DNA of 64,000 bases from Vicinamibacterales bacterium (GCA_965207595.1 CBDBMW010000009.1:76710-140709); one strand, 5' to 3'; numbered from the stretch's first letter, positions 5,570-55,000 are shown. The notes: a model not told the origin generated them from the sequence alone. Translations and numbers: made by a program.

Positions 5570-6657
5570 GTCCGGCTGCGCCGGGAGCCTTGGCGGGGAC
5601 ACTGCCGGCGCCGCACGCGACGGCGCGGCGAGCGTCGGCCACCGTGCTGCTGGTGGTGTCGCCGTGCGTCCTGGCGGGCACCATGATCGCGTCGCTGGCG
5701 GTCGGGCCGACGGGCATCTCCCTCGACGCGCTGCCTGCCGTGCTGTGGGCGATGGCGGGGGGCACGGTCGACGCGGAGATCGCAACCGAGCGACTGGTCC
5801 TGCTCGACCTGCGGCTGCCGCGCACGCTGATCGGGCTCTTCGTCGGTGCGTCGCTCGCCCTGGCGGGAGCGATGATGCAGGGGATGTTCCGCAACCCGCT
5901 CGCCGACCCCGGCCTCATCGGGGTCTCCGCGGGGGCAGCCCTCGCCGCCATCTCCACCATCGCGCTGGGCGACACGGTGCTCGCGTTCTGGCCGGCGACC
6001 CTGGGGGTGCACGCGTTGCCCGTGGCCGCCTTCCTGGGCGGGCTGGCGACCACGCTGCTCCTCGTCCTCGTGGCCAACCGCTCCGGCGGCCTCCCGATCG
6101 GCACGCTGCTTCTGGCCGGGATCGCGTTCGGGGCCCTCGCCAACGCCGGGTCCGGCCTCATCGCCTACGTGAGCAACGATCGCGAGCTGCGCGACCTGAC
6201 GCTCTGGTCCCTCGGCTCGCTGAGCGGCGCGAACTGGGACAAGGTGACCGCCATCGTCCCCTTCGCGCTCCTGCTAGCCGTGTTCACACCCGCGATGGTC
6301 CGGGCGCTCAACGGCCTCGTGCTCGGCGAAGCCGAGGCCTTCCACCTCGGAGTCAGCGTCGAGCGAGCCAAGCGCATCCTGGTGACGCTGACGGCGGCGG
6401 CGGTCGGCGCGGCGGTGGCCGTGGCCGGCGTGATCGGGTTCGTCGGCATCGTCGTGCCGCACTTCGCGCGCTTGATCACCGGCCCCGATCACCGCTTCGT
6501 CCTTCCGGCCTCCGCGCTCTTCGGCGGAGTCATCGTACTGACCGCCGACGTCATCGCGCGCCTCATCGTGCAGCCGGCCGAGCTGCCGATCGGCATCGTG
6601 ATGGCCGCCATCGGCGCGCCGGTGTTCCTGCATCTGGTAATCCGGCGCGGGATCTGA
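5566..6657 (+). CDS. hmuU: Heme ABC transporter permease (FecCD family)
   Basis: ATGA overlap with hmuT. Typical FecCD peptide (LLDLRLPRTLIGLFVGASLALAGAMMQG...GIVMAAIGAPVFLHL). Confidence 0.9.
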   Translation: MSPAAPGALAGTLPAPHATARRASATVLLVVSPCVLAGTMIASLAVGPTGISLDALPAVLWAMAGGTVDAEIATERLVLLDLRLPRTLIGLFVGASLALAGAMMQGMFRNPLADPGLIGVSAGAALAAISTIALGDTVLAFWPATLGVHALPVAAFLGGLATTLLLVLVANRSGGLPIGTLLLAGIAFGALANAGSGLIAYVSNDRELRDLTLWSLGSLSGANWDKVTAIVPFALLLAVFTPAMVRALNGLVLGEAEAFHLGVSVERAKRILVTLTAAAVGAAVAVAGVIGFVGIVVPHFARLITGPDHRFVLPASALFGGVIVLTADVIARLIVQPAELPIGIVMAAIGAPVFLHLVIRRGI

Positions 6658-6675
6658 CCTCCGGGGCCGGACCGC

Positions 6676-7536
6676 ATGCTGCAAACCCGCTCGCTCAGCT
6701 ACGCGGTCGGCGGCCGGGCGCTCGTCGAGAAGGCCTCTCTCGACGTCAGACCCGGTTCCCTCACCGTCGTCATCGGACCGAACGGCGCCGGCAAGACCAC
6801 GCTGGTGCGCATGCTCTCCGGCGAGCTGCGGCCGACGGCAGGCCGCCTGACGTTGGACGGCCGACCGTTGCGGGCGTTCTCCGCCAGGGAACTGGCCCTC
6901 CGCCGCGCAGTCGTCCCGCAGGCGGCGCAACTGACCTTCCCGTTCACGGTCGAGGAAGTCGTGCTGCTCGGCCGGACGGTCCCCGGCCTCGACGATCCCG
7001 GGCCCGCCCGCGCCCTCTGCCGCACCGCGCTCGAGCGCGTCGGCTTGCTCGATCTCGCCGGCCGGAGCTACACCGCCCTCTCCGGCGGGGAGCGCCAGCG
7101 CGTGCACCTGGCCCGGGCCTTCGCCCAGCTGGGCGACTGGCGCCGCGACGACGGCACGACCCTCCTGTTCCTGGACGAGCCGACGTCCAACCTCGACCTT
7201 GCCCACCAGCTCTCGATCCTGCGGGAGGTCCGGAAGGACGTCGCGGAGGGTCTTGCCGTCGTGGCCGTGCTGCACGACCTCAATCTCGCATCGTGCTTCG
7301 CCGATCGAATCATCCTGATGAGCGCCGGCCGGATCGCCCGGGTCGGCCCACCCCCCGAGATCTTCCGTGATGAGGTGCTGTCGACGGTCTTCGGCTGCGT
7401 GGTGCGGGCCAATGTCACCCCTGCTCCGGACGTGCCGTTCGTGCTGCCGCAGGCATGCGGGGAAACCGGACGCCGCGGCACCCCGACTCCGGCGCCGCGG
7501 CGTCCGGCTTCGTCAGGCGCTACCCCGAACACCTGA
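6676..7536 (+). CDS. hmuV: Heme ABC transporter ATP-binding protein
   Basis: Walker A GPNGAGKTT, signature LSGGERQR and Walker B LLFLDEPTS. Confidence 0.9.
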   Translation: MLQTRSLSYAVGGRALVEKASLDVRPGSLTVVIGPNGAGKTTLVRMLSGELRPTAGRLTLDGRPLRAFSARELALRRAVVPQAAQLTFPFTVEEVVLLGRTVPGLDDPGPARALCRTALERVGLLDLAGRSYTALSGGERQRVHLARAFAQLGDWRRDDGTTLLFLDEPTSNLDLAHQLSILREVRKDVAEGLAVVAVLHDLNLASCFADRIILMSAGRIARVGPPPEIFRDEVLSTVFGCVVRANVTPAPDVPFVLPQACGETGRRGTPTPAPRRPASSGATPNT

Positions 7537-7596
7537 CGGCCACGCCCTTTGCGCTTGATCGACGGGCGCGGTCTGGGTCACAATGCGCGCTGATAC

Positions 7597-7611
7597 TGAG
7601 ACGCATTCTCA
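7597..7611. promoter_or_regulatory. TGAGA-CGCAT-TCTCA inverted repeat, Fur-box-like operator (site 2 of 4)
   Basis: Coordinates verified against ORF 7455. The wider context GATACTGAGACGCATTCTC matches 13 of 19 positions of the classical Fur box GATAATGATAATCATTATC. It lies 76-90 nt upstream of the CbiX-like gene. Confidence 0.45.
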
Positions 7612-7686
7612 AGACATGTCGGGGGGACCGGTCGGGTGCACACGCCCACGGGCTCCCACGCAGCGGCGCTCCCGTGAACGAGAGAG

Positions 7687-8601
7687 GTGAGGAAGACAGT
7701 GGCGATACGAGCTTGGACGCGGTTGCTGCCTGCCCTGTTGCTCGTGCTGCTGGCGCCCGGCGTCGCCGGGGCCCAGGGCATCCTCCTGCTCGCTCACGGC
7801 GGCCGTGCCGACTGGAATCAGGAAGTCCTGGGCCTGGCGGATCGTGTCTCCTCGAGCGTGCCTGTCGAGGTGGCGTTCGGCATGGCGAACAAGCGGACCA
7901 TCCAGGAAGCACTGGGCCGGCTGGCGGAACACGACGTCACGAGCATCGTCGCGGTTCCGCTGTTCATCTCGTCGCACAGCAGCGTGATGCGGGCCACGGA
8001 GTACCTGCTGGGGAGCCGCGATGAAGCGCCGCCGCAGATGGAAGCCTTTGCCCGCATGGCCGCCCGGCGCGAGTCGGAGGGCGACGCGGCCAGCGACACC
8101 GGCTTCGACTGGACCTCGCCACTGGAGCCGGGAGTACCGATCTCGGTGGGACGGGCCCTCGACGGCCACCCTCTCGTCGCCGCGATCCTGATCTCCCGCG
8201 CCCTGGATGTCAGCGAGGCCCCCGAAGACGAGGTCGTCGTGGTGGTGGCGCACGGACCGAGCTCGGAAGCGGACAACGAGCTCTGGCTGGGACACATGGC
8301 TGTCCTGGTCGACGAAATGCGCAGCCGTACGGGCTTCAGCCGCATCGAGCACCTGACGGTCCGGGACGACGCGTCGGAACCGGTCCGCGAGCAGGCCACC
8401 GAGGAGTTGCGCGCCGTGGTCGGGGCCGCCATCGATGAGGGGAGCTCGGTGGTCATCGTACCGTTGCTCCTGTCCTACGGCGGCATCGAAGTCGGCATCC
8501 GGCGGAGGCTCGAGGGCTTGTCGTACCGCATGGCCCGTCAGGCCCTGCTGCCGGACGAGCGGCTGGCCGAGTGGGTGCTGATGCAGGTGGCCGCGCGGTA
8601 G
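7687..8601 (+). CDS. Secreted two-domain CbiX/SirB-like class II chelatase-fold protein
   Basis: Signal peptide LLPALLLVLLAPGVAGAQG. Two CbiX-like halves start at ILLLAHGGRADWN and VVVVVAHGPSSEADN, with VAVPLFIS and IVPLLLSYG strands. An alternative GTG start at 7699 has a better AGGAAG spacer. Confidence 0.7.
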   Translation: MRKTVAIRAWTRLLPALLLVLLAPGVAGAQGILLLAHGGRADWNQEVLGLADRVSSSVPVEVAFGMANKRTIQEALGRLAEHDVTSIVAVPLFISSHSSVMRATEYLLGSRDEAPPQMEAFARMAARRESEGDAASDTGFDWTSPLEPGVPISVGRALDGHPLVAAILISRALDVSEAPEDEVVVVVAHGPSSEADNELWLGHMAVLVDEMRSRTGFSRIEHLTVRDDASEPVREQATEELRAVVGAAIDEGSSVVIVPLLLSYGGIEVGIRRRLEGLSYRMARQALLPDERLAEWVLMQVAAR

Positions 8602-38776: not shown

Positions 38777-39250
38777 TCATCGTCCGGGTCGCAGGGCGGA
38801 GAGAAAACGCTCGAGGTCCCGCGCGAACGCGTTCCGGACGCCGCCGACGCCGGCCGCGAGAGCGGCAATCCTGACCGAATCCAGATCCGTGCCGTATGCG
38901 TGGCGAAACAGATGCCGGAATCGCCGCAACTCGTCGAGGTCGCGAGCGGTCGTCTCGGACAGCAGCGCCGGGCGGATGCCCCGAATGTCGAGTTGCATCC
39001 GCCGAATCAGGTCGGCGTGATAGCGCGCGTCGTCGACGCGGTTCTCGAAGAAGCGCGCGACCTCCTCGAAGAGCTGTTCGAACGCGCCGTAGAGATTGTG
39101 GAGCTGGTACCCCATGCTGTCGATTGCCTCTGCGCCGCGGACCTCTGCCGCCCGGCGTTCCTCGATGCGATCGCCGACGCGGTCGATGTCCCGGCGCCGC
39201 GCCTGCAGAGCGGCTTCGAGAAGCGCGAACGCTCCCTCCTCCATTCTCAT
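38777..39250 (-). CDS. hepT: HepT-like HEPN ribonuclease toxin (type VII TA)
   Basis: ATG 39250 overlaps the upstream MNT stop (ATGA). The peptide RRFRHLFRHAYG contains the HEPN motif Rx4HxY. Confidence 0.7.
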   Translation of the reverse strand: MRMEEGAFALLEAALQARRRDIDRVGDRIEERRAAEVRGAEAIDSMGYQLHNLYGAFEQLFEEVARFFENRVDDARYHADLIRRMQLDIRGIRPALLSETTARDLDELRRFRHLFRHAYGTDLDSVRIAALAAGVGGVRNAFARDLERFLSALRPGR

Positions 39251-39594
39251 CCGTAGATCTTGATTCCAGCCCGGACACACGCTTCCGGGAACGGGTGCCG
39301 GTCGAGGTCGATCACGTCCACCGCGCGCCCGGTCACCTTCTCGAGTGCCTTCATTACCTGGAGCACCTCGTGCGAGCTCCCCCCCACAGCCACGTCGACG
39401 TCCGACGCCTCGCGCCACAGCTCGGGTGAGCGGAGCGATCCGATGACGTACGCGGTGCGGACGCCGAGCCGTTCCCGAAGCCCGAACAGGGCGCTCCGCA
39501 CCTTCGACAGCACGGCCGCCTGCTCGACCCCCAGGCGCCGTCGGCGCGCGCGCATCGCGCTATCGCGGACGCTGGTGTCGAAAGGGGTTCGCAT
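39247..39594 (-). CDS. mntA: MNT-type minimal nucleotidyltransferase antitoxin
   Basis: GSLRSPELWREASDVDVAV matches the pol-beta pattern GS-x10-DxD. It is coupled to hepT. Confidence 0.8.
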   Translation of the reverse strand: MRTPFDTSVRDSAMRARRRRLGVEQAAVLSKVRSALFGLRERLGVRTAYVIGSLRSPELWREASDVDVAVGGSSHEVLQVMKALEKVTGRAVDVIDLDRHPFPEACVRAGIKIYG

Positions 39595-39612: not shown

Positions 39613-39954
39613 TCACAAGTCGCGAAACACCGGATCGAGCGCGAGCTGAACGCGAATGGCCTCCTCGACGCGCCGCATGTCCTGCGCGGCGATTCGTCCC
39701 ATCCGCTGCGTCAGGCGGCGCTTGCTCGCCGTGGTCAACTGGTCGGCCAGGGCCTTGCGCCGAGAACCCCGAAGCATGACGAGCGCCTCGCTGGGGAACA
39801 CCCGGTCGGCGGAACTGGTCAGAGGAACGACCTGCACCCGGTTCAGGTGCCGGTTGGATTCGTCGTTGCTCACGACCACGGCCGGGCGCCTCTTGCGAAT
39901 CTCACCGCCGACCGAGGGGTCGAAGCTCACCCACCACACGTCACCGCGTCTCAT
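39613..39954 (-). CDS. mazF: MazF/PemK-family endoribonuclease toxin
   Basis: MRRGDVWWVSFDPSVGGEIRKRRPAVVVSND...VVPLTS. Confidence 0.9.
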   Translation of the reverse strand: MRRGDVWWVSFDPSVGGEIRKRRPAVVVSNDESNRHLNRVQVVPLTSSADRVFPSEALVMLRGSRRKALADQLTTASKRRLTQRMGRIAAQDMRRVEEAIRVQLALDPVFRDL

Positions 39955-40171
39955 CGCCGACGTCCCCGATCATCGCGTCCGCCCACTCCACGGCGTCCGC
40001 CTCGCGCTGCTCTTCGGCAGCCATCTGCCGGTACGCCGAGTCGAGGTGTCCTCGGAGCACGTGGGGTCGCACCAGCCTCTCTATGAACTGACTGATCCGG
40101 CCGCGACCCACGACGTCGTGAAGGCGCTCGTACACTTCCGCGTCGATCGTGATGGTGAGCTTCCTCTGCAC
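39941..40171 (-). CDS. Ribbon-helix-helix antitoxin partnered with MazF
   Basis: (V)QRKLTITIDAEVYERLHDVVGRGRISQFIERLVR. It overlaps the mazF start by 14 nt. GTG at 40171 is preferred; the ORF track extends to 40237. Confidence 0.65.
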   Translation of the reverse strand: MQRKLTITIDAEVYERLHDVVGRGRISQFIERLVRPHVLRGHLDSAYRQMAAEEQREADAVEWADAMIGDVGDETR

Positions 40172-40172
40172 A

Positions 40173-40194
40173 GTTACACGTATGTTACACGTAT
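40173..40194 (-). promoter_or_regulatory. Tandem 11-nt direct repeat GTTACACGTAT x2 (plus strand) abutting the antitoxin start; putative TA operator
   Basis: Read directly from the sequence. It sits in a locally AT-rich patch, and each unit contains an ACGT core. Confidence 0.35.
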
Positions 40195-40252
40195 TGACCG
40201 GCGACGCGGACGCCGGGCGTCTCACCACCTCGGACATCCCGAAGGCGGCAGT

Positions 40253-43564
<3,312 letters not shown>

Positions 43565-43600
43565 CCTGCCTCCTCGGTCCGTCCGACACAGAGATCCATC

Positions 43601-44366
43601 CTACGTGAAGAGCGGGCGCGGACCCCGCCCCCAGGCCGAAGCGAGCAAGTCCCGGCATCGTGCCACCAGTCGTTCGGCGTGCGCAGCCGCCGGAATGCAC
43701 GAAGTAGGCGCGTGAGGTCCCGCGTCGGTACCGCGCCGCGAACGCTCCGCACGCGCCCGCGAAGCGCCGGCGCAACTCGTCGAGGCGCGTGGCGATCTGT
43801 TCCTCGGCAGATTCGTTGCGGGCGATGTGCTGATAGATGACGAGGCTCTGCCCTCGACGCCAGCACGGAAGCAGGTCCTCGTAGAAGGCGTACTTCGGCC
43901 CCTCTCCTGAGAGGGGACCCTTGCTCGAGACCTCGAGGCCCGTATCGGGATCCGCGAACACGAGGTGGGCGTCCTTCACCGCGCGGAGCCCTGTCTCCAC
44001 CCAGTCGCGGCGGTTCGACGCTCTGGATGCTCGCTTCTGATACGGCTCGAAGACCAGCTTGTCGCGGAAGAACACGGTGTTCGCGGGAAGCGCTCCGCAC
44101 GCCTCCACGAAGGCAACCGACCGCGCGCCGCCGTGCACCACCGAGCGCATCTTCTCGAAGAGAGCGGGATCGCAACGACGAAACTCGTCGTTGAGCGGCG
44201 GATCGAGATAGTCGAGTTTCTCACCGTCGCCGGGCTTCGCATCCTCGGTCAGATACCAGAGCACTCCGAGACGGAACTCCGGCCCATGCGCGTCCCGGCG
44301 ACACAGCCGGCGCAGCAAGCCATACTTGCCGTAGTCTCCCACGTCCCCCGCGTAGCGATCCTGCAA
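43601..44366 (-). pseudogene. Operon gene 5: conserved-looking protein of unknown family, apparently frameshifted near 43695
   Basis: AGGAGGG-N4-TTG at 44366. Motifs [24 protein letters not shown] and [12 protein letters not shown]. After ...SRAYFVH the frame degenerates. The frame shifted by one nt reads [30 protein letters not shown] and stops at TAG 43601..43603. Confidence 0.5.
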
Positions 44367-44379
44367 CGGTCCCTCCTGC

Positions 44380-45102
44380 CTACCCGTCAGTGCACGTCTT
44401 GGCAAGGGGCGTCAACGGCATATCGCGCCCCTCCCGCTTCGCCCTCTGAGCCGTGAAGACCGCCATCTCCACGTCCCTCGCCCGCCATGCGCGTCCAGTG
44501 AGCTCGGTCAGCCTCCGCGCCGTGAACCGACACCAGCGGATCCACGATTCGACGAACGGCCAGTGACTCTCCATGACCTGCTCGCCCTGCAGGTCCGGGA
44601 TACACGCGAGCGCGGGGCCCCCGACGGCCGAGTAGTCGTGCGACGCACCGTTGTCCCAGGCCCATCGCGTAATCTGTGTGTCGACCATCGGGAAGCTCTC
44701 CGGGCACAGGAACGCCGGAAACGTGGCGGCGGTCGCCACTCGGGGAGTGTCGAACAACTTCGCCCGAAAGGCGCTGAACGACTGCCTCCGAGGATTCTCG
44801 ACGTACTCCATGCAAAGGGACCACACCTCGGCGACGGCAACGTCGTGAGCAAGCACTGCCCGCGTTGTGTTGTTGCGCGCTGGCGGCATCGTGTAGAGCT
44901 TCCAGAACACCACCTCGGCCCACGGTTCGAGACGACGACGCGCCTGCCGCCGGAACCGAGTCTCGAAGGCCATCGTCTGGATCGGATCGCCCCGATCGAT
45001 GTTCAGGTCGAACCAGCCGGCGTGGTCCGGAGCGCCGGAGAACTCCCGCAAGTCGACGGGATACCGGTATGCGTCGAGCGCCCTCGTCCAGGTGTGGGGC
45101 AC
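44380..45102 (-). CDS. Operon gene 4: hypothetical 240-aa protein, no family recognised
   Basis: GTG 45102 lies one nt after the upstream TGA. The ORF is intact: [21 protein letters not shown]...[21 protein letters not shown]...[19 protein letters not shown]. The sequence upstream of 45102 in the ORF-track ORF is out-of-frame ARH sequence. Confidence 0.55.
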
Positions 45103-45103
45103 G

Positions 45104-46059
45104 TCATACCCTAACGGCTTTTGCGCGGCCCGCTTCCCCCCGCCGCCAGAAGCCGATCCCGTACGACTCGGCCCCCCTCCGGATCTCCGCGACCCGGCGC
45201 CACCGCGCAGGAATCGCCTCGAGCCCGAACCGGGCGCCGAGCAGCGCAGCCGCCGCCGCACCGTTCGTGTCCTGTCGCCGCCGGCTTCGGATGACGTCGC
45301 GCAGGCCCTGTTCGCAGATCTCCGCGCGCCAGCAGCGCGATCAGAGGCGTCGGGAGCGTGTAACCCTCGAGTCTCCATCGGCCAGTACATGCTCGATCTC
45401 GACCTCGGACGCCTCGCGCACCGCACTGCGGCCAGACCCGGTATGCGCGCGTCGTAGCCGAACCACCCCAGCCCCGGCAACGCCGCCTGCACGGCGTCCA
45501 CGGCGGTCTCGAGGAGTACGTCGAGCGGGAGGGATTCTCCGCGGAGCGCCGCCGCGGCGAGGTTCGCCAACGCCAGGACCAACCGCAACGCGGATCCCAA
45601 TGGGTCGCGGCGGCGCTGACGACGCCGTTCCGCGCGAGCGCTTCCGGCGTGCGATTCCGCCGACGCCGTCCGAGAGGCCTCCAGGATGCGAAGGCCCGCC
45701 GGCTCCCGTGCCTGCCCGCAGGCGCCGCGCGGCCAGGAGCTGCGGGGCGTCGCCGCCGTGGAGTTCAAGGACGTAGCCCGTCAGCCCCCCGCTGCCGACC
45801 CCATTCGCCTCCGCCCAATACCGCAGACGCCGGCCGAGATCGTCCACGTCGAGCGGACCCGCCTCCGCCGCCTCGGCGATCACGCTCGCCTGGGCCACGC
45901 CGCCATCATCCGGGTAGCCAGGGCGGGCCGCGTTCTCGCGGACACCGGATACGTCTCCGCGACTCGCCGCTTCGGCCATCCCTCCTGCACGATCCCGAGC
46001 AGATTGCCTGCCGTGATTCCGGCCATCAGGTCCCGGGCGCGGTCGCTGTCGCTTCTCGT
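45104..46059 (-). pseudogene. Operon gene 3: ADP-ribosylglycohydrolase-like gene broken by multiple frameshifts
   Basis: ARH-like peptides are scattered over all three minus frames: DSDRARDLMAGITAGNLLGIVQEG, ARPGYPDDGGVAQASVIAEA...LRYWAEANG, PEALARNGVVSAAATHWDP, LGSALRLVLALANLAAAALRGES, EGYTLPTPLIALL, EAGGD and DTNGAAAAALLGARFGLEAIPARW. There is no in-frame start. Confidence 0.6.
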
Positions 46060-46121
46060 ACCGGACGGGCCTCTGGGGAGGATGCCGCGAACTCGAGGAA
46101 TCTCCGAAGGTTCTCCCTTCG

Positions 46122-46784
46122 CTATTGCCGGATGTGGCCAAGTGACGCGACATCAGGCACTCCACCTGCCGTCTCGGGAACGCCCCGCTCGCTGGTCGGT
46201 TGCGCCGAAGCACACTCCCGCAACCTGTCGGCAAGTAACTCGACCCACCCGACCCTCTGCTCCGCCGATAGCGCGTCCACTTCGGCGACGTCCAGCCGGG
46301 CGCCGGTGATGTCGGCCACAACTGTCGCGTCGAAAGCCTGCCGCAGGTCCATCGAATACTGACCTTTGACCGAGGGCAATGGCAACAATCCGCCCACGCG
46401 GAAGCGAAACTGAATCGCCAGGTCCAGAAGTCGCCCGTACAGCAGGCTCGCGAAATCGCGAGACGAGCCGTCATATATCGTAATGTGCGGATGGAAGCCG
46501 AAGTCCCTCTTCAACCAGACTTCTCGGAGTTCCCTGGAATGGCATCCGATGAAGACCGTGTTCTGATCACCGTCAAAGAACGACCCCGCGCCGTCGGTCA
46601 CGATCTCCGTATCACGGATCTTTCGATCCAGGCCGCGGACATCGTACCTCTGACGGTACGGGCCTCTTATCGTGATGTGCGCTCTGCTTTTCTCATGCGG
46701 ATTCGCGATGAGCCGCATCGCGTCGAACGCGGCCTGAAGCCGCTGGTTACGGAAATAGACGACGTAGAATACCCGCTTCGACAT
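46122..46784 (-). CDS. Operon gene 2: 2H phosphoesterase superfamily protein (LigT / cyclic- or 2',5'-phosphodiesterase-like)
   Basis: Two HxTx motifs (RAHITIRGPY and FHPHITIYDG) at the spacing expected for the 2H fold. The 220-aa ORF is intact. Confidence 0.7.
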   Translation of the reverse strand: MSKRVFYVVYFRNQRLQAAFDAMRLIANPHEKSRAHITIRGPYRQRYDVRGLDRKIRDTEIVTDGAGSFFDGDQNTVFIGCHSRELREVWLKRDFGFHPHITIYDGSSRDFASLLYGRLLDLAIQFRFRVGGLLPLPSVKGQYSMDLRQAFDATVVADITGARLDVAEVDALSAEQRVGWVELLADRLRECASAQPTSERGVPETAGGVPDVASLGHIRQ

Positions 46785-46787
46785 CGC

Positions 46788-47775
46788 TCACACCACCAGG
46801 AACCTCATGGTGTCCGTCTCCGCCGTCACCTCACACAGGAGTCGGTATATTTGAGTACCAAACTCCCGCCCTCTGCGGAACGCGTCGTCTCTGGTTGCAG
46901 ATTCCGAAATCCAGCCGATTGCGTCCTCCTTCCCCCGAGCCGTCTCGTCGAGGAACCAGGCGTACGCCCTCTTGATCTCCTTCACCTGTTCTCCCGTTCC
47001 TGGTACCTCTTCGGCAACCCGGTCGAGACGAATCGAGCGGCGTGAGCCTAGCGATTCCCAACAACTCTTCAGGGCTCACGGAATCGCGATTGACCGAGAG
47101 CAGGACGACCGCGGAATGGCAAGTGAGCAATCGACTGAATCTAAGCTTCAGATTCTTAAGGTCCCTTCTGTGGCGGCCGTCAGGATCTTCCGCGGCGTGA
47201 TTCCGTCGGTACTCGTAGTTCAGGCACAGCGTGCGCCAGAACCGCATGATGTCGTTCGTCAGGAACAGAGGACGAAACGACGCCTCGTGGTTGGGATAGT
47301 CGCGCCAATAGCTGTCGATGATCTCCTTCAGAATCCCCTCGTAGAGGACGTCGTTGAACAAGGGCTGGCTCTCAAGCAGCAGTAGCAGGCGAGCCGTGAA
47401 GAAGTTCCTGAAGTCGTCGTCCGGTCCACCCATCGCCCCGCGGATGTCGTCGAGATAGTGGACCGTGAGGTACTCCCCGTCGTTCGAAAACTCTGGGAAC
47501 TGCAAGTCCTGTACAGCGCGAATCAGGTCGGCGTCCAGAAGTGTCTTCCGAATCCGCGGGATCGAGTTCGAGCTGGAGGATCCTCTGTGGACGAAGAACA
47601 GATCCAGATCGGAGTACTCCGACGCCTCCAGTCGACCAAAGGAGCCGGTAACGTAGATGCACAAGTCCGGAAAGACGTCTCCCTTGACGATGCCCTCGAC
47701 TCTGGAACGCACCTCCTCGAGCCGTCGCTTCGAGTAGTCGCGTCGCGACGAAAGTCGGTCGAGGGGATCACTCAC
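46788..47775 (-). pseudogene. Operon gene 1: pol-beta-fold nucleotidyltransferase with helical C-domain, one frameshift near 47035
   Basis: GTG 47775 with GGAG upstream. Motif GSFGRLEASEYSDLDLFF (G[SG]...DxD). After ...LGIARLTPL the sensible reading continues in ORF frame 46788..46985 (RLDRVAEEVPGTGEQVKEIKRAYAWFLDE...). Confidence 0.65.
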
Positions 47776-47832
47776 TCCAACGACTCCTGCACCGGATTCA
47801 CCCGCACCTTCAAGGAACGCCCGGTACGCTCT

Positions 47833-48585
47833 CTACTTCCGGAGCGTGCGGTCCACGTAGGCGCGGACGGCGTCCTGCACGCGGGTGGACATCCAGGCCT
47901 CGAGCACCTCCCCGTCGACCGACCGCGTGTACTGCACGACGCGGTCCCGGCTGGGCTGCCGGATGGTCCGCTTGGTCAGCGCGAACGAGGCCGGCGGCAG
48001 GGAGCCCAGCCGGGCCGCCATCTCCACCGCGCGGTCGACGAGCGTCTCGGGCGGCGCCAGCTCGTCCACGAAGCCGTTGGCCAGCGCCTCGTCCGGGGTG
48101 CAGGTCAGCCCGCGGTAGACGACGGACTGCAGCCGGTGCCCCGGCACGATCAGCCGCAGGATCTCCATCGCCATGGTAGGAAAGGGCACCCCGATCGACA
48201 GCTCCGGCGTCCCGATCCGGCCCGTCCCCGCCGCCATGACCCGGTAGTCGCAGGCGCACGCCAGGATGCAGCCGCCGGCGATGGCGTGCCCGTTCACCGC
48301 GGCTATCAGGGGCTTCGGGAACGTGAACGTCTTGAAGAAGGCGTCGCCCAGGAGCGGCAGGAACGCCCGCACGTACTCGCTGCCGCCCTCCGTCAGGCGC
48401 CGCAGATCGACGCCGGCCGAGAATACGGTTCCCGTGCCGGTCAGGACGACCGCCGCCGTGTCCGCCTGCTCCAGCCGCGCGAGCTCCGCCGCCCAGCCGC
48501 GCATCAACTCCGAATCGAACGCGTTGACCTTGCCGTGCTCCAGCCGAACCACCGTCACGTCGTCACGAGACTCCGTCGTGATCAT
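47833..48585 (-). CDS. Enoyl-CoA hydratase/isomerase (crotonase) family protein
   Basis: VVLTGTGTVFSAGVDL, AAVNGHAIAGG. Confidence 0.9.
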   Translation of the reverse strand: MITTESRDDVTVVRLEHGKVNAFDSELMRGWAAELARLEQADTAAVVLTGTGTVFSAGVDLRRLTEGGSEYVRAFLPLLGDAFFKTFTFPKPLIAAVNGHAIAGGCILACACDYRVMAAGTGRIGTPELSIGVPFPTMAMEILRLIVPGHRLQSVVYRGLTCTPDEALANGFVDELAPPETLVDRAVEMAARLGSLPPASFALTKRTIRQPSRDRVVQYTRSVDGEVLEAWMSTRVQDAVRAYVDRTLRK

Positions 48586-48687
48586 TCCGTCTCATCCTCC
48601 GTTCGCCAAAGTGCGTCTTCGGGCCGGGGCGGCGTGCCCGCCTCGCGCTCGCCGCTGCGTCTTCCCAAGCCACCGACGGCCCGGCCG

Positions 48688-49077
48688 TCACCCCGACGGC
48701 GGCCCGTGCAGGCGCAAGCCGGGTACGCGGTCGAAGTCGCCGTCGAGGGTATAGACGACGCAGTCGTGCTGAATGGCGAGCGCGGCGGTCAGACAGTCCG
48801 CGAATCCGATCAGTCTACCCTCCTGCCTCAGGCGCTGCCGAAGGCGACCCACCAGCGCCCAGGTCTCGCGGTCGACCTCCAGGTAGTCGAGCGCTTCGAA
48901 GCGCGCGACCATCGCGTCGAGCTCCAACTCCGTCCGCAGTCCCTGCATCAGTTCGGCGAGCACAGGCCCCACCATCGCGATCTCGCGTCCGTCGTACAGA
49001 CGCCAGAACTCCGTGGCGTCCGGAGACCGGGGCCGGCGTTGCGCGTTGATCCAGACCGAGGTGTCAGCTATCACCAT
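48688..49077 (-). CDS. vapC: PIN-domain toxin
   Basis: MVIADTSVWINA...ADCLTAALAIQHDCVVYTLDGDF carries the acidic PIN residues. Confidence 0.85.
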   Translation of the reverse strand: MVIADTSVWINAQRRPRSPDATEFWRLYDGREIAMVGPVLAELMQGLRTELELDAMVARFEALDYLEVDRETWALVGRLRQRLRQEGRLIGFADCLTAALAIQHDCVVYTLDGDFDRVPGLRLHGPPSG

Positions 49078-49309
49078 CCACCGCTCGCAGGCGATCCAGG
49101 AAACGCTCGCGTCTGGCGTCGGCCGCCCGGGCCTCGGGCCGGACGTCGTCCGTGCGCGCGGCGAGCCACGCGTCCTTGAGCTCGCGCAGCTTCTTCCGCC
49201 GCAGGTACTCCGCTGCCGCTCTGTTCAGGGCGGCGCTTCGAGAACGCTCACCGGTTGCCGCCACCAGCTCGTCCAGCACTTTCCCATCGATGGTGATCGT
49301 GGTACGCAT
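49064..49309 (-). CDS. vapB: VapB-type antitoxin
   Basis: MRTTITIDGKVLDELVAATGERSRSAALNRAAAEYLRR. It overlaps the vapC start by 14 nt. Confidence 0.75.
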   Translation of the reverse strand: MRTTITIDGKVLDELVAATGERSRSAALNRAAAEYLRRKKLRELKDAWLAARTDDVRPEARAADARRERFLDRLRAVDGDS

Positions 49310-49398
49310 CGGCTATCTTCATCCACCGGGATCACCATCACTATACACGCCGTACTTCATACACCTCAGGGCCGTGGCCGCGGGAAGCCCGAGCCCAT

Positions 49399-51960
49399 CT
49401 ACTCGACCCGCAGCGCCTCCATCGGGTCGATGCGCGTCGCGCGCCGTGCCGGCAGCCAGCAGGCGACGAGAGCGACGCCGACCAGCAGGAGCGGAGCCGC
49501 GACGAAGGTCAGCGCGTCACGGGGAGCGACCCCAACCAGGAAGCTCTCCACCAGGCGGCTCGACAGGAACGCCCCGAGCATCCCGGCGATGGCCCCGACG
49601 GCCACGAGCAGGGCGCCCTGCCGCACCACGAGAGCCACGATGTCGCTCCGGGCAGCCCCCAGCGCCATGCGGATGCCGATCTCGCTGCGACGTTGCGCCA
49701 CCGTGTAGCTGAGCAGGCCGTAGACGCCGAAAGCGGCCAGCAGCAGCGCGAGCCCCGCGAACCCGCCGACCAGGACGGCGTAGAAGCGCGGCTGCACGAA
49801 CACGGCCGCCAGCCGGGCATCCATCGTCATCACGTCGACGACCGTCGCGCCCGGGTGCGCCTCGGTCACGACCTCCCGGAGGAAAGGAACGACGGCGAGC
49901 GGGTCGCCAACCGTCCGCACGCTGACGAACGACATGCCGAAGAAGGAGACCGGCGCGCGGTCGGCCTGGCGCCAGGGCACGAACATCTCCGGCTCCGACT
50001 CGCCGGTGGGCGCGTTGCCGTACGCCAGGTCGGCGATCACCCCGACGATCTCCCAGGACTCCTCGCCGCCTCCCCAGGGGCGGCCGAGGAGCAGTCGTTG
50101 TCCGGCGGCGGGCTCGCCGCCGAAGACCTCGCGGGCCAGCGCTTCGTTGACCACCACGACCCCGGGGCCGCCGACGCCGTCGAGCCGCGTCGGGAGGCGC
50201 CCCGCGCGCAGTCGCACGCGCAGGACGTCGAACCAGCCGGGGCTCGCCACCCGGACCGTCGCTCGGGGAACCTCGCGCGGATCGGCCGGCGCGAGGCGAC
50301 CGGCGATGCTGAGTGCGACCTGCATCATGCCCCCGGCGGCGAGCGGAACGTTCGACGAGAGTCCGACCGCCGTGGTGGCGGGGAGGGCTGCGAGGCGCGC
50401 CGCCCCGTCGCTCAACGCAGCGTTGAAGCGCTGGTTGGCGGCTTCGACCGCTTCCCGGGCCTCGCGCGTCATCACGCCCGGCCTGAGTCGCGCGTCGGGG
50501 TTCAGGGTCCGCGCCGTGATCACGTTGGCGGGGTCGTACCCGCGATCGACGGTCACCAGCGCCACGAAACTGCGGAGCAGCAGGCCCGCCCCCACCAGCA
50601 GCACCATGGCCAGCGCCACCTGCGCGACGGCCAGCACGGCCCGCGCGCGGTTGGCGCGCAGCAGCCGGAACCCGCCGGCCGCCTGCGCGCTTCCCTCGTT
50701 GAGGACGCGGACGAGGTCCAGGCGGGACCACTGGAACGCCGGGACGGCGCCGAACGCCAGGCCGACCAGGACCGAGAGCCCGAGCGTGAACGCGAGCACC
50801 TCGCCGCCGACGCCCACCTCTGCCAGCCGCGGGACGTCGCCGGGGACCAGCGCCGGAACCGCGCGCAGCACGGCTGCGGCCGCGCCCAGACCGAGCGCGC
50901 CGCCCAGCAGGCCCAGGATGACGCTCTCGGTCAGGAGCTGCCGCACCAGCCGGCCGCGGGCCGCTCCCAGGGCCGCGCAGACGGCCAGCGCCCGCTGACG
51001 CGACACGCCGCGCGCGAGCAGGAGCCCGGCCACGTTGATGCACGCGATCAACAGCACGAGCGCCGTCGCCCCGCTGAGCGCCAGCAGCGCCGGCCGGTAC
51101 TCGGCGGTCATCTCCTCCTGCAGTGGAACCACCCGGGTCTCGAAGGCCGGCGCACCGCTCGCCTCCGCGTCGCCGCCTTGCGAGCCTCCGAACAGCGGAT
51201 CGTCGCGGCGCTCCAGCAGGGTCGCGGCCTCGGCCTCGGCCTGCTCCGGCGAGACGTCCGCGCGGAGTCGCCCCAGGCCGGAGACGGAGACAAAGACGAA
51301 GGTCCGGGCATCCTGGTCGCCCGCGCTCGACGGAGCCGGCGGCTCGAAGGCCGGCAGCACGAGGGGGGTCCAGATCTCGTTGTCGGGGCTGGGAAAGTAG
51401 AACCCCTCGGCGAGGACCCCGACCACCGCGCGCGCTACGCCGCCGATCTCGTGAACGGTCCCGACCACGTCCGGATCCGCGCCGAAGCGGGCAGCCCAGG
51501 TGTCGTAGCTCAGCAGCACCACCTGGTCCGCGCCGTCCCGGGCCTCGTCCTCCGTGAAGAGCCGCCCGAGGTGCGGCCTCGCCCGCAGCAGCGGAAACAG
51601 CGCCGGGGAGACCGCCGTTCCCTGCAGCCTGACGCTCCCCTCCCGAACCGCCCAATCGGCCTGGAGCGGCGTGTACGCGGCGAGGTGCTCGAACGACTCG
51701 GCCTCCTCCAGCAACTGCATCGAGTAGTTGTTCAAGGCCAGGGTCGAACGCGGTATCCCCGTCGGCACCTGCCCGACGCGAACGATGGCGTCGGCATGGG
51801 GATACGGCAGCGGGCGGAGAACGAGGCCGTAGACGATGCTGAACATCGCCGCGTTGGCCCCGATGCCGAGCGCCAGCGTGGTGAGCGCGGCCAGCGTGAA
51901 TCCGCGCTGCCGCGCCAGGGACCGGACGGCGCGGCGAACGTCGCGCAGCAGCGTGTCCAT
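49399..51960 (-). CDS. ADOP-family duplicated orphan permease (paralogue of 36149..38602)
   Basis: N-terminal LLRDVRRAVRSLARQRGFTLAALTTLALGIGANAAMFSIVYGLVLRPLPYP. C-terminal WLPARRATRIDPMEALRVE. Confidence 0.9.
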   Translation of the reverse strand: MDTLLRDVRRAVRSLARQRGFTLAALTTLALGIGANAAMFSIVYGLVLRPLPYPHADAIVRVGQVPTGIPRSTLALNNYSMQLLEEAESFEHLAAYTPLQADWAVREGSVRLQGTAVSPALFPLLRARPHLGRLFTEDEARDGADQVVLLSYDTWAARFGADPDVVGTVHEIGGVARAVVGVLAEGFYFPSPDNEIWTPLVLPAFEPPAPSSAGDQDARTFVFVSVSGLGRLRADVSPEQAEAEAATLLERRDDPLFGGSQGGDAEASGAPAFETRVVPLQEEMTAEYRPALLALSGATALVLLIACINVAGLLLARGVSRQRALAVCAALGAARGRLVRQLLTESVILGLLGGALGLGAAAAVLRAVPALVPGDVPRLAEVGVGGEVLAFTLGLSVLVGLAFGAVPAFQWSRLDLVRVLNEGSAQAAGGFRLLRANRARAVLAVAQVALAMVLLVGAGLLLRSFVALVTVDRGYDPANVITARTLNPDARLRPGVMTREAREAVEAANQRFNAALSDGAARLAALPATTAVGLSSNVPLAAGGMMQVALSIAGRLAPADPREVPRATVRVASPGWFDVLRVRLRAGRLPTRLDGVGGPGVVVVNEALAREVFGGEPAAGQRLLLGRPWGGGEESWEIVGVIADLAYGNAPTGESEPEMFVPWRQADRAPVSFFGMSFVSVRTVGDPLAVVPFLREVVTEAHPGATVVDVMTMDARLAAVFVQPRFYAVLVGGFAGLALLLAAFGVYGLLSYTVAQRRSEIGIRMALGAARSDIVALVVRQGALLVAVGAIAGMLGAFLSSRLVESFLVGVAPRDALTFVAAPLLLVGVALVACWLPARRATRIDPMEALRVE

Positions 51961-52041
51961 GGCAATCCTCGGGGCCGCCCGAGTCGCGGGCCTGACTCTG
52001 CCGGCCCGGGAGACCCGCCCGCGCCCGCGCCGGGCGATCCG

Positions 52042-55000
52042 CTACTCCGCGCGCAGCGCGCCGAGGAGCGGCGACCGCACGGCGGCGACCGTGGCGGCCA
52101 GCGACGCGGTCAGCCCGGTAGCCACCACCACCAGGAGCAGACCGCCGAGGGAGAGCACGGGCACGCCGCCGCCCCGCTCCAGCCAGGCCGGCGCGATGGC
52201 GATGATCGCGCAGCCCGTGCCCGCCGCCAGCCCGGCGAAGAGAAGGAAGGCGTTCTCGGCCAGCACCATGAGCGACAGGTGCCGGGCGTTGTAGCCGACG
52301 GCGCGCATCAGCGCCAGCTCCCGGCGGCGCTCCAGGACGTTCCGCAGCAGGACCGCGCCCAGACCGAAGGTGCCGAGGATGAGGCCCAGCCCGCCCAGCG
52401 TCTGGAAGGTCGCCAGGTAGGTGTTCTCGACGCGGTGGAACGCGGCCAACCGCTCGCCGGCCGAGACGACGTCGAAGCCGAAGTCGGCGAGGCGGTCCTC
52501 GAGGGCCGCGCTCACCTCGGCCATGCGCGCCGGAGGGGCGTCGATGAGGAAGAACCGGTAGCCCTCGTAGTCGGGGAACACGCGCTCGAAGTGCGTCTCG
52601 CCGATCAGCAGCTCGCGCTGGAAGATGCTGTCCGAGAGCGCCCCCACGATGCGCAGCGTGATCGGCCGGTCGGTGTCCCGGTTCAGCACGAAGTCGTCGC
52701 CGATCCCGATGTGGAGCGCGTAGTTCAGCGAGGTCGAGTCGGCAATGGCCGGGATGGCGCCGTCCTCGAACTCGCGGTCGAGCAGCAGCCAGGGGTTCGC
52801 TTCCTCCTCCGGCGTCTCCGCCGCCGTCGCGCTGAACGCGAAGCGCCCCTCGGCCACGAAGGCCGGCGTCGGGGCCAGGACGCGCGGGTCCTTCGCCTGG
52901 TAGAGGTTCAGGCAGCTCGCGTCCTCGCCCGGCCGCAGGCGGAAGCGCTCGAGCCCGACGCCGGCCAGCGCCTCCCCCTCCTCGAACAGATCGGCCACGA
53001 ACAGCTCGTCCTGCCCCTCAAGTGTGGACGGGTCGTGCACGATCGGCAGCAACGCGTCGGCCAGCAGCGTGTAGCCGCCCGTGCCGCCGGCGCGGTCGAG
53101 CACGTTCCCCCCGCCCTCCCGGCGGAAGGCGTCCACGGCGACGATGATGAACGCGGCCGAAGCGATCAACGCGATGCAGAGCACGCTGCGCCCCGGCCGG
53201 TACGAGGCGTTGCGGAAGCCGACCTGCGGCACGGACCACTGCGCGGGGGCGGGAACGCCGGGGCGGGCGCCGATCCACGCCCAGGCGAAGACGAGCATGG
53301 CGACGAGCAGCAGCAGGCCGCCGCCGAAGAAGCCCTCGGTCGCGCCAACGACCCCCGCCGACGCGAGGGCGACCGCCGCGACGCCGGTTCCCAGCAGGCC
53401 GAACCCGATGCGCCAGGCGCGCGAGGCAGGGGCCGCCTCGCCCTCGGTGGCCGCGGGCAGGCCGGTCACCTCGGCCACCGCCCCCGTCAGGAGGCTCCGG
53501 GGCGAAGCAGGCGCTAGCGCGCGCAGCGTCCAGCCGATGGACCCGAACGCGGCGAGCACGCCGCCCGCCGCGCCGGCGGCCAGCATCGCGGGCGAGACCT
53601 CGAGGGCCAGCCGCGTGGTCCCGACCGCATCGACCCACCAGGTACGGAGCCCCCACATGACGAGCTCGGCATAGCCGATGGCGCCCAGCACGCCGATGGC
53701 GCTTCCCAGCACGGACAGCACGGTGGCCTCGCCGAGGAACACGCGGCGAATGGCCGCCGCGGGGTAGCCGGCCGCCCGCAACAGCCCGAGCTCTCGCAGG
53801 CGCTGCTCGACCCCGAGCCGGAAGAAGAGGCTGGCCAGCAGCAGGGCCGAGACGACGAGGAAGAAGCTGAAGTAGATGAAGTACAGGCCGAAGTCCGTGA
53901 CGCCCGCCGACGCCTCCACCGCGAGCGCACGGGCCGGATAGACGACGAAGCCCGTCGCGAGCGGGTCGATGGCCGACCGGAACGCGTCGCGCACGTCGGC
54001 CGCCAGCGCCGCCACGTCTGCGCCTGCAGCCCCCGCCTCAAACGAGGCTCCGGCCGCCGCCGGAACAGCCGCCGCCGCGGAATGAAGCCGGATCGAGGTC
54101 ACCTCTCCCCAGCGCGAGCCCCACAGGCGCTGGCCGTCCGCGAGCGGGATGAACGCCTTGGGCGTCGTGCGGTGCTCGTCCCAGTACTCCTCGTCCGCCG
54201 GGCGGATCAGGTCCAGGTCGATGTCGAACGGCGGATCCCAGTCGGTGACGTCGGTGGCTTCCGTGATGCCAGGGTAGTCGGGGGCGAGGTCGCGGTCGTC
54301 GGCCGCGCCGGCGATCGGCACGACGTCGGCGACGCGGAACTCCGCCTCGTGCGTGACCAGGCGCCCCTCGTCCTCCCAGACGAAGTACTCCAGCGTCAGC
54401 GTGTCGCCGGGCGCGGCATCGAGATCGTCCGCCGCCCAGCGATTCAGAACCGCCGGCGGCGCAGTGGCGGCCTCGTCCCCAGCGCCCGCCTGGCCCTCGG
54501 CGGCGCCCGCCTGGCCCCCGGCGGCACCCGCCTGGCCCCCGGCGGCGCCCCGTTCACCTGGCGCGCCGGCGCTCTCCTCCGAAGCGACCTCGCTCACGGC
54601 ATCGAGGGCGCGCGCGGTCACCAGGGAGTACGGCGTCAGCCGGTCACCGACGCGGAGCGCGTTGGCCAGGTAGGTCAGCACGGGCTCGGCGCGCAGACCG
54701 AGCGTCCCCGCGACGGACTCCGCCGCCGCGGCGGTCTCGTCGTTCACGAGCCCGGCCGACGACTCGATGCTGACCACGCCGTGCTCCGGGAGCGCGCGCA
54801 CGCGGAGGCCCAGGTCGTCGAGGGTCGCCACCGAGCGCAGCGCCGACTCGGCTGTCGTCAGGCGGGCGGCGGCCGGCCCCGGAGCGTCCGACGCCCCGCC
54901 GGCGGCCGCGAGGAGGATCGTGTTGACCCGGCCCTCCTGTTCCAGGTCGCGCTGGAGCCGCGCCAGCGACACGAAGACGGAGCGCGCCAGCCCCTGCTGC

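Follow-up and report, generated by a model that had tools for sequence, protein, structure and literature searches.

A putative conflict-type nucleotidyltransferase–2H phosphoesterase cassette next to a separate insertion in a Vicinamibacterales genome

Does a run of tightly packed genes in a toxin-antitoxin-rich neighbourhood constitute a single system? The question is raised by a 64,000-nucleotide stretch of a Vicinamibacterales bacterium genome (GCA_965207595.1, CBDBMW010000009.1:76710-140709; the whole stretch is called the window here), in which five minus-strand genes, G1 to G5, follow one another with near-zero spacing between positions 43601 and 47775. An original prediction, made from the sequence alone, had read them as one operon combining a signal-making nucleotidyltransferase (NTase), a signal-erasing 2H phosphoesterase, an ADP-ribosylglycohydrolase (ARH) as ADP-ribose processor and two proteins acting as sensor or effector. 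Comparison with other genomes points to a different origin: the locus is probably a mosaic, set in a region of a sponge-associated Acidobacteria genome that acts as a sink for inserted genes, and composed of a mobile G1-G2 cassette and a separate G3-G5 insertion. The NTase-2H pair itself is supported by sequence comparisons as an undescribed and widespread cassette of conflict type, kin to the candidate defence system PDC-M70.

Layout and insertion history of the locus

The coordinates were verified by six-frame translation and codon checks, in which all codon positions of the original prediction proved correct. The five genes are as follows.

46788-47775, minus strand: G1, pol-beta-type NTase with a helical C-domain; GTG start at 47775, TGA stop at 46788-90; frameshifted
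46122-46784, minus strand: G2, 2H phosphoesterase-superfamily protein of 220 aa, intact; ATG at 46784, TAG at 46122-24
45104-46121, minus strand: G3, ARH pseudogene; TGA at 45104-06, overlapping the G4 GTG at 45102
44380-45102, minus strand: G4, orphan all-helical protein of 240 aa, intact; GTG at 45102, TAG at 44380-82
43601-44366, minus strand: G5, orphan alpha/beta protein; TTG at 44366, TAG at 43601-03; frameshifted

The signature motifs reported for these genes were borne out as well, with GSFGRLEASEYSDLDLFF in G1, HITIRG and HITIYDG in G2 and ARH-like peptides in the G3 region; after the G4 stop, an AGGAGGG-N4-TTG element (TTG at 44366) leads into G5.

A profile made from 20 aligned G1 homologues (alignment A1) was run on one genome per GTDB species (185,579 genomes) and retrieved 355 relatives; the G1 locus counts given here refer to the best 80 of these 355, at which all five proteins were searched by tblastn. 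The 80 loci are spread over Acidobacteriota, Alpha-, Gamma- and Deltaproteobacteria, Bacteroidota, Planctomycetota, Chloroflexota, Actinomycetota, Nitrospirota, Gemmatimonadota, Verrucomicrobiota and others. G2 lies directly downstream of G1 in 61 of them, across gaps that range from -29 to +35 nt and mostly from -4 to +12 nt, and of the 19 loci without an adjacent G2, four are cut off by the end of the contig. None of the 80 contains G3, G4 or G5, and clustering of the neighbouring open reading frames returned no third recurrent family around the pair. As read by eye, its flanks consist mainly of unrelated genes of housekeeping function (class II ribonucleotide reductase, RelA/SpoT, RlmN, malate synthase, FtsZ, RluA). 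G1-G2 is evidently a self-contained, horizontally mobile two-gene cassette that is found in ten or more phyla and is maintained by purifying selection; dN/dS between the window lineage and a sister metagenome-assembled genome (MAG) amounts to 0.13 for G1 and 0.23 for G2, and to 0.10 for the adjacent enoyl-CoA hydratase (ECH) gene.

The locus is bracketed by this ECH gene and a tricorn-type peptidase gene, and in sister Acidobacteria MAGs (four contigs, with G1 88 % identical) the same slot is occupied by ECH, G1, G2, Lactamase_B and tricorn peptidase in that order. When the window is aligned by blastn with one sister MAG (L003), positions 48601-46129, comprising ECH, G1 and G2, match at 87 % and positions 43512-40251, comprising the tricorn gene, at 90 %; the intervening 46129-43512 has no match and corresponds exactly to G3-G5, the break falling at the G2 stop and the match returning just upstream of where the tricorn gene starts. 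Base composition agrees with this insertion history: the window GC is about 71 %, with a dip to 61 % across 46-48 kb, and the genes fall into classes of 0.58-0.60 (G1, G2), 0.66 (G4, G5) and 0.71-0.74 with a GC3 of 0.92-0.96 (host genes). G3-G4-G5 is a separate 2.6-kb indel consisting of a dead ARH gene and two orphan genes, at which a check for repeats, promoters, terminators, tRNA genes, Rfam families and tandem repeats gave nothing informative.

A single five-gene operon would account for the tight packing and for the signatures of translational coupling, and Macro-domain genes do adjoin relatives of G5. It could also draw on a biochemical tie, as 2H and ADP-ribose-processing enzymes meet in RNA 2'-phosphate / Appr>p metabolism (PMC9503650). 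The original prediction had, however, proposed co-location in other genomes as the test of such a unit, and by this test the unit is refuted: no G3, G4 or G5 at any of the 80 G1 loci, no G5 or ARH gene at any of 80 G4 loci, the pair followed by Lactamase_B and devoid of the other three genes in the sister MAGs, a homology break exactly at the G2 stop, and different GC classes. Co-directionality is not special to the five genes either, because the flanking ABC permease, VapBC, ECH and tricorn peptidase genes are likewise on the minus strand, and genes on both sides are just as closely spaced. One system of five genes is thus very improbable. With it goes the ADP-ribose link of the whole unit, which stands, weakly, for another pair, that of G5 relatives and Macro-domain genes on two IMG/VR contigs.

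The damage that had been noticed in three of the five genes (G1, G3, G5) is real, though uneven, two 1-bp insertions contrasting with old decay. The comparison is provided by L001, a 13.9-kb metagenome contig that is 99.5 % identical to window positions 40304-52500 and differs from it by four indels in total, all outside housekeeping genes. Relative to L001, in which both genes are intact (328 and 254 aa, respectively), G1 carries a single 1-bp insertion at 47032 and G5 a single one at 43697, neither of them in a homopolymer run longer than two, whereas G3 shows no indel difference and is equally broken in both sequences. Given the lack of longer homopolymers and the position of all four indels outside housekeeping genes, sequencing error is an unlikely source of the frameshifts. 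The statement that this copy is probably inactive is kept for the G1-G2 cassette of the window genome, because its NTase is frameshifted.

All the toxin-antitoxin pairs previously named as neighbours were found near the five-gene stretch.

48688-49309, minus strand: VapBC toxin-antitoxin pair (Pfam PIN and RHH/VapB on the L001 orthologues)
39613-40237, minus strand: MazF-like toxin with a small antitoxin, a MazEF-like pair (read by eye from the translation only)
38777-39594, minus strand: MNT/HepT pair (85 % nucleotide identity to L003 genes with Pfam Polbeta and HepT-like_2)

The VapBC stretch (49403-48601) has no homology in L003 and the MazF-like stretch (40251-39582) no counterpart there; both pairs are evidently separate insertions specific to the window lineage. 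Altogether, at least three independent small cassettes have been taken up between housekeeping genes in this stretch. The tricorn-type peptidase gene (40253-43564) contains an acidic, Gly/Asp/Glu-rich low-complexity insert at 41736-41969.

The NTase-2H pair, its fusions and its relatives

The assignment of G1 to the pol-beta NTases holds: the GSFGR...SDLDLF signature is present, and in alignment A1 the catalytic residues are invariant in the 20 homologues (G44, S45, D56 and D58, among 58 invariant columns). The helical C-domain of about 200 residues also contains many invariant positions, and public family models cover only the NTase core, Pfam NTP_transf_2 being placed just under its cut-off (E 9e-4) and the G1 profile finding in the PDB generic NTase cores only, over the same stretch as the catalytic signature. 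No likeness to CCA-adding enzymes was detectable beyond the core motif, and PADLOC gave no AbiE or MenT-type match. Its PDC-M70A model, by comparison, matches G1 over nearly the full length at E 4.8e-28, as well as 20/20 members of the G1 family. Viral contigs contain one relative of G1 and phage GenBank records none. On a prophage-like IMG/VR contig (L180:4276-5978), a DEDD 3'-5' exonuclease gene precedes and overlaps the start of a G1-like NTase gene that is followed by no 2H gene and adjoined by a divergent helix-turn-helix and ImmA/IrrE-like regulator (by eye); another distant G1-type NTase is paired with a histidine phosphatase.

That G2 is a 2H phosphoesterase is likewise confirmed by the conservation of both HxT motifs, in which H36 and H100 are invariant and T38 and T102 at least 90 % conserved, and by Pfam PF13563, which is matched by 27 of 35 family members (best 1.7e-10; LigT_PEase by 6). 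With 22.6 bits, the window's own G2 falls short of the 27-bit cut-off, and the G2 profile found nothing significant among PDB sequences. The family is a small, specific one, with 447 clusters out of 1.84 billion representatives. The published activities of 2H enzymes are directed at 2',3'-cyclic phosphate RNA ends, 2'-5' oligonucleotides and cyclic nucleotides, and include that of a 3'-trimming RNase (PMC5512222; PMC9503650).

Fusions bear on the function of the pair. In 12 of 66 loci with G2, the gene that directly follows the NTase gene encodes a much longer protein, of which the 2H domain makes up the N-terminal ~200 residues. These proteins include Type IIG restriction-methylases of about 1240 aa (PDLC03603, 5e-177 over residues 198-1229), Type II N6-methylases of 720-760 aa (PDLC03328, 4e-125) and GNAT proteins of about 910 aa in total, next to which an ASCH-domain gene is found. 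An exhaustive search added two classes. In the first, a 680-aa 2H::TIR-APAZ protein matches SPARTA TIR-APAZ structures over residues 218-657 (8qlo, 3e-75); on its contig (L189:439-4997, Logan SRR33230171) it is preceded by a G1-family NTase (HMM 1.7e-121) and followed by a presumed short pAgo of 506 aa, whose plasmid homologue (50 % identical) comes after a TIR gene, as in the SPARTA arrangement. In the second class, the C-domain of about 280 aa is unassigned, and the one locus examined (L191) has the NTase upstream. Indeed, a G1-type NTase gene stands immediately upstream in every 2H-fusion locus examined, and in two loci (L053, L032) genes for HsdR-type helicase-nucleases lie directly upstream of G1 in turn. 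The recurring logic would be that of a nucleotidyl-transferring "writer" and a phosphoester-cleaving "eraser" repeatedly attached to defence proteins, and from the fusions with the NTase upstream we infer a conflict function of the writer/eraser or signal type.

Two further genes recur beside these fusions. The ASCH-domain gene overlaps the end of the 2H::GNAT gene at L014:11680-12264 and occupies the same position in L017 and L036 (three Chloroflexota genomes in all), and the pairing of an acetyltransferase with an ASCH protein hints at RNA acetylation and deacetylation. Directly after the 2H::methylase gene, a conserved protein of about 212 aa (L047:4957-5598, L053:11226-11861, L069:11237-11875), membrane-spanning by eye and without a Pfam match, could be an effector.

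How does the pair relate to known systems? The original prediction had noted a gene order unlike that of CBASS, Pycsar, Thoeris, type III CRISPR or DarTG, and the scans agree: for all five proteins, PADLOC returned only PDC-M70A and a marginal MTase_II match, with no CBASS, Pycsar, Thoeris or type III CRISPR model, and neither Pfam nor PADLOC detected a DarTG component (DarT DUF4433, macro-domain DarG). Its further claim of a conflict-type module outside the named defence systems is supported for G1 and G2, and fails in its extension to all five genes. PDC-M70 is a two-gene candidate (CAS_00217) predicted by "guilt-by-embedding" in BREX, DISARM or Type I restriction-modification (RM) loci (Payne et al., bioRxiv 10.1101/2024.01.29.577857). 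Itself a computational candidate, it shares with G1-G2 the format of an NTase-first cassette tied to defence loci based on DNA modification. However, the match of G1 to M70A is distant (~95 bits versus 495 bits for a true member), and the partner is unrelated: PDC-M70B is matched by none of 35 G2 proteins, whereas the scores of an authentic PDC-M70 pair, from a Sinorhizobium plasmid, are 3e-149 for A and 3e-106 for B. A true M70B protein (L188) lacks the HxT 2H signature, and the G2 HMM has no match at its locus. Membership of G1-G2 in PDC-M70 was rejected on account of the distant A match and the missing M70B; the pair is rather a sister arrangement with another partner. Beyond the PADLOC candidate list, a literature search found nothing on PDC-M70 or on a defence system made of an NTase and a 2H protein.

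Members of the 2H class cleave 2-5A and cyclic oligonucleotide signals, and a pol-beta-fold NTase with a helical C-lobe combined with a 2H phosphodiesterase is reminiscent of OAS and 2'-5' phosphodiesterase or of CBASS and Acb1. Unlike in CBASS confronted with phage Acb1, the 2H enzyme is encoded in the same cassette and not by the invader; no CD-NTase or Cap model is matched, and most G1-G2 cassettes have no identifiable effector. With DarT/DarG, MenT and AbiEii the pair would share the order of writer first and eraser second, a proposed enzymatic antidote and a toxin-antitoxin-like genomic behaviour, but in contrast to DarT/DarG its chemistry would be nucleotidyl transfer and phosphodiester hydrolysis, not ADP-ribosylation and a macro domain, and no sequence relationship was detected. 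To SPARTA, Type IIG and Type II RM enzymes the relation is literal for some family members, in which a G2-type 2H domain is fused N-terminally to otherwise complete, canonical enzymes; the window copy, in contrast, is free-standing, with no RM or pAgo attached.

The G3-G5 insertion and its orphan families

The derivation of G3 from an ARH is confirmed by PF03747 (E 9e-10) and by an end-to-end alignment, the stitched translation covering residues 3-298 of the Thermus thermophilus ARH 2cwc (E 8e-5). Full-length, colinear similarity to this protein and to DraG places G3 in the DraG/ARH family (PF03747), from whose members it differs in being a pseudogene with degenerate metal-binding motifs: it reads PDDGG for TDDT and RRQDTN for GGDADT, can be read through only with three or more frame switches and lacks an in-frame ATG, GTG or TTG between 46152 and 46062. 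It is, to judge from these features, an old and dead ARH pseudogene.

G4 and G5 had been described as fitting no nameable family, and scans with Pfam, NCBIfam, PHROGs and PADLOC indeed gave none. The 484 homologues of G4 are all unnamed, and its AlphaFold2 (AF2) model (pLDDT 96) is all-helical and without a significant Foldseek match in the PDB (best E 0.9, TM at most 0.38), the top entries being MjOgg, MutY, Tm1821 and Qng1. The invariant MVDTQ of G4 resembles the VDTH catalytic motif of EndoIII; hhalign against E. coli Nth (EndoIII) aligned only MVDTQ with AVDTH, at a probability of 0.1 %. The likeness to HhH-GPD DNA glycosylases, weak and non-significant on the model, is a lead and not an assignment. 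Across 80 metagenome loci, G4 has no conserved neighbour and is never beside G5 or an ARH gene, and viral contigs contain no relatives. Some homologues carry or follow an EcsC-like segment; in one (L094), the upstream part of a fusion is the N-terminal piece of an ARH, with 70 % identity to G3. Tandem G4 paralogues of 265 and 240 aa in the same orientation occur at L095:4189-5693 and L096:4189-5693.

The 628 homologues of G5 share an invariant QDRYxGDxGDxxKYGLLR motif at the N-terminus and a DPD motif. G5 itself has a dN/dS of 0.24 and a confident alpha/beta AF2 model (pLDDT 94), for which Foldseek found no significant match in the PDB or BFVD. Several faint signals concern methyltransferases: PADLOC MTase_II at E 0.034 around FADPDTG, scattered methyltransferases among the non-significant Foldseek matches, and an hhalign comparison with E. 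coli Dam at E 0.028 and a probability of 1.7 %; no glycine-rich SAM loop was seen. On two Chloroflexota contigs (L087:5105-6786, L088:5108-6771), the stop of an N6_N4 methylase gene overlaps the start of a G5 homologue, and this pair is inserted in a histidine-biosynthesis operon between the IGPD and inositol-monophosphatase-family genes. Five distant G5 relatives lie on viral contigs. In two IMG/VR contigs (L176:2711-5723, L177:25-3933), such relatives stand beside a protein composed of a Macro and a C-terminal helical domain, by McrB/McrC genes; a functional G5-Macro pair is suggested because both gene orders occur. Elsewhere, G5 relatives are found by GmrSD (L175, IMG/VR) and between two GIY-YIG nucleases (L182, an Ensifer plasmid).

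Could G3-G4-G5 then be the remnant of a second, independent module for ADP-ribose or DNA-modification conflict, in which G5 would be a DNA-directed modifier or effector, the ARH its reverser by analogy with DarTG, and G4 a glycosylase-like accessory? The company kept by G5 relatives (Macro and McrBC, GmrSD, N6_N4 methylase, GIY-YIG), the ARH fragment fused to a G4 homologue, the overlap of the G3 stop with the G4 start and the equal GC of G4 and G5 all speak for it. Nevertheless, G4-G5 adjacency is found only at the orthologous locus of this Acidobacteria clade, and the two genes decay independently within it, G4 being frameshifted and G5 intact in L184 and the reverse holding in the window. 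The viral-contig relatives of G5 are moreover only 28-35 % identical, and neither orphan has a significant fold or family assignment, so that a remnant module is rather unlikely.

Possible functions of the pair and their meaning

Both enzymes have conserved catalytic residues, the pair is genetically coupled and selected, and the 2H domain is physically joined to defence effectors. We read G1-G2 as a putative writer/eraser pair. The nucleotide-derived product of the NTase would be a short oligonucleotide signal, 2'-5' or 3'-5' linked, or else a nucleotidyl tail added to RNA at its 3' end, and the 2H domain would bind and hydrolyse it; in the fusions with Type IIG enzymes, Type II methylases, GNAT proteins and the SPARTA TIR-APAZ protein, the 2H domain would couple this product to the effector. 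Of the uses considered, that of a signal maker with its sensor and eraser ranks first, if tentatively. A bolder and somewhat speculative extension is that the pair serves as a plug-in immunity module, whose 2H part reads and destroys the product; the two-part unit would have been attached, each time independently, to four or more kinds of effector or defence protein. The hosts would be the Type IIG enzymes, the Type II methylases by HsdR-like helicases, the GNAT protein and SPARTA TIR-APAZ; the module would add a second trigger or a guard function to them, and the free-standing form of the window would be its minimal version.

MenT and AbiEii are NTase toxins, and DarT/DarG and TUT1/USB1 are analogues of a writer with its eraser. 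By analogy, G1-G2 might be a toxin-antitoxin-like guard, in which an NTase toxin nucleotidylates RNA 3' ends and a 2H antidote trims the adduct, so that fusion of the antidote to a defence protein would render the loss or inhibition of that protein lethal. The toxin-antitoxin-like distribution as a two-gene cassette between housekeeping genes, where VapBC and MazEF are also lineage-specific insertions, is consistent with such a guard, as are the order of writer and eraser, the state of the window copy (presumed toxin frameshifted, presumed antidote intact) and the ability of 2H domains to act as 3'-trimming RNases (PMC5512222). The toxicity of G1 is, however, putative, with no AbiE or MenT-type match in PADLOC, and solo G1 genes, considered below, would be toxins devoid of antidote; a guard is doubtful on balance. 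Healing of RNA ends offers another use for the same chemistry, in which RNA ends with a 2',3'-cyclic phosphate, as produced by metal-independent RNase toxins, would be opened by 2H and rebuilt at the 3' end by the NTase, as a protection against abundant HEPN, MazF and PIN toxins and not as a defence system. RNase-toxin modules do surround the locus, and 2H enzymes are established cleaners of 2',3'>P termini after RNase attack (PMC9503650; PMC5512222). Yet no ligase, kinase/phosphatase or Tpt1 partner is present, the NTase resembles CCA-adding enzymes in its core motif only, and the fusions are to DNA-directed restriction enzymes, methylases and SPARTA, not to RNA-repair enzymes, which makes healing unlikely. 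That the pair does something other than signalling, guarding or RNA-end healing has a minor, though appreciable, chance.

Several observations weigh against the view of the locus and the pair preferred here. Around 90 % of G2 proteins stand alone, with a length of roughly 200 aa and no effector domain, and the fused partners, such as Type IIG enzymes and SPARTA, are autonomous systems with triggers of their own. Some 14 genomes, mostly of Solirubrobacterales and Nitrospirales, carry an intact G1 that has no 2H gene in the 8 kb around it, and neither the signal nor the toxin-antitoxin reading accounts easily for these genomes. A distant G1 relative is found within a glycosyltransferase/MFS cluster, and part of the G1 superfamily may have a metabolic role. 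G4 and G5, similar in GC, may have arrived together, their independence being read from other loci; the conflict function of the G1-G2 family is likewise deduced from sequence and context.

For annotation, the locus carries a caution: in an insertion sink rich in toxin-antitoxin pairs, tight co-directional packing does not define a system. G4 and G5 represent orphan families that fold with confidence, number hundreds of members and occur in DNA-conflict neighbourhoods, and they are reasonable targets for the discovery of function. For the NTase-2H pair, testable constructs are offered by the SPARTA-type locus L189, the Type IIG fusions (such as L010) and the intact free-standing pair of L001 (G1 at 6386-7372, G2 at 7376-8038). 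The 2H fold has so far been known in immunity mainly as a viral eraser of host signals, as in Acb1 and the 2-5A phosphodiesterases. If the pair is a true conflict module, it would represent a new wiring of nucleotide chemistry into immunity, in which the host would itself employ the 2H fold, as a fusion with restriction enzymes and with an Argonaute-associated TIR effector.

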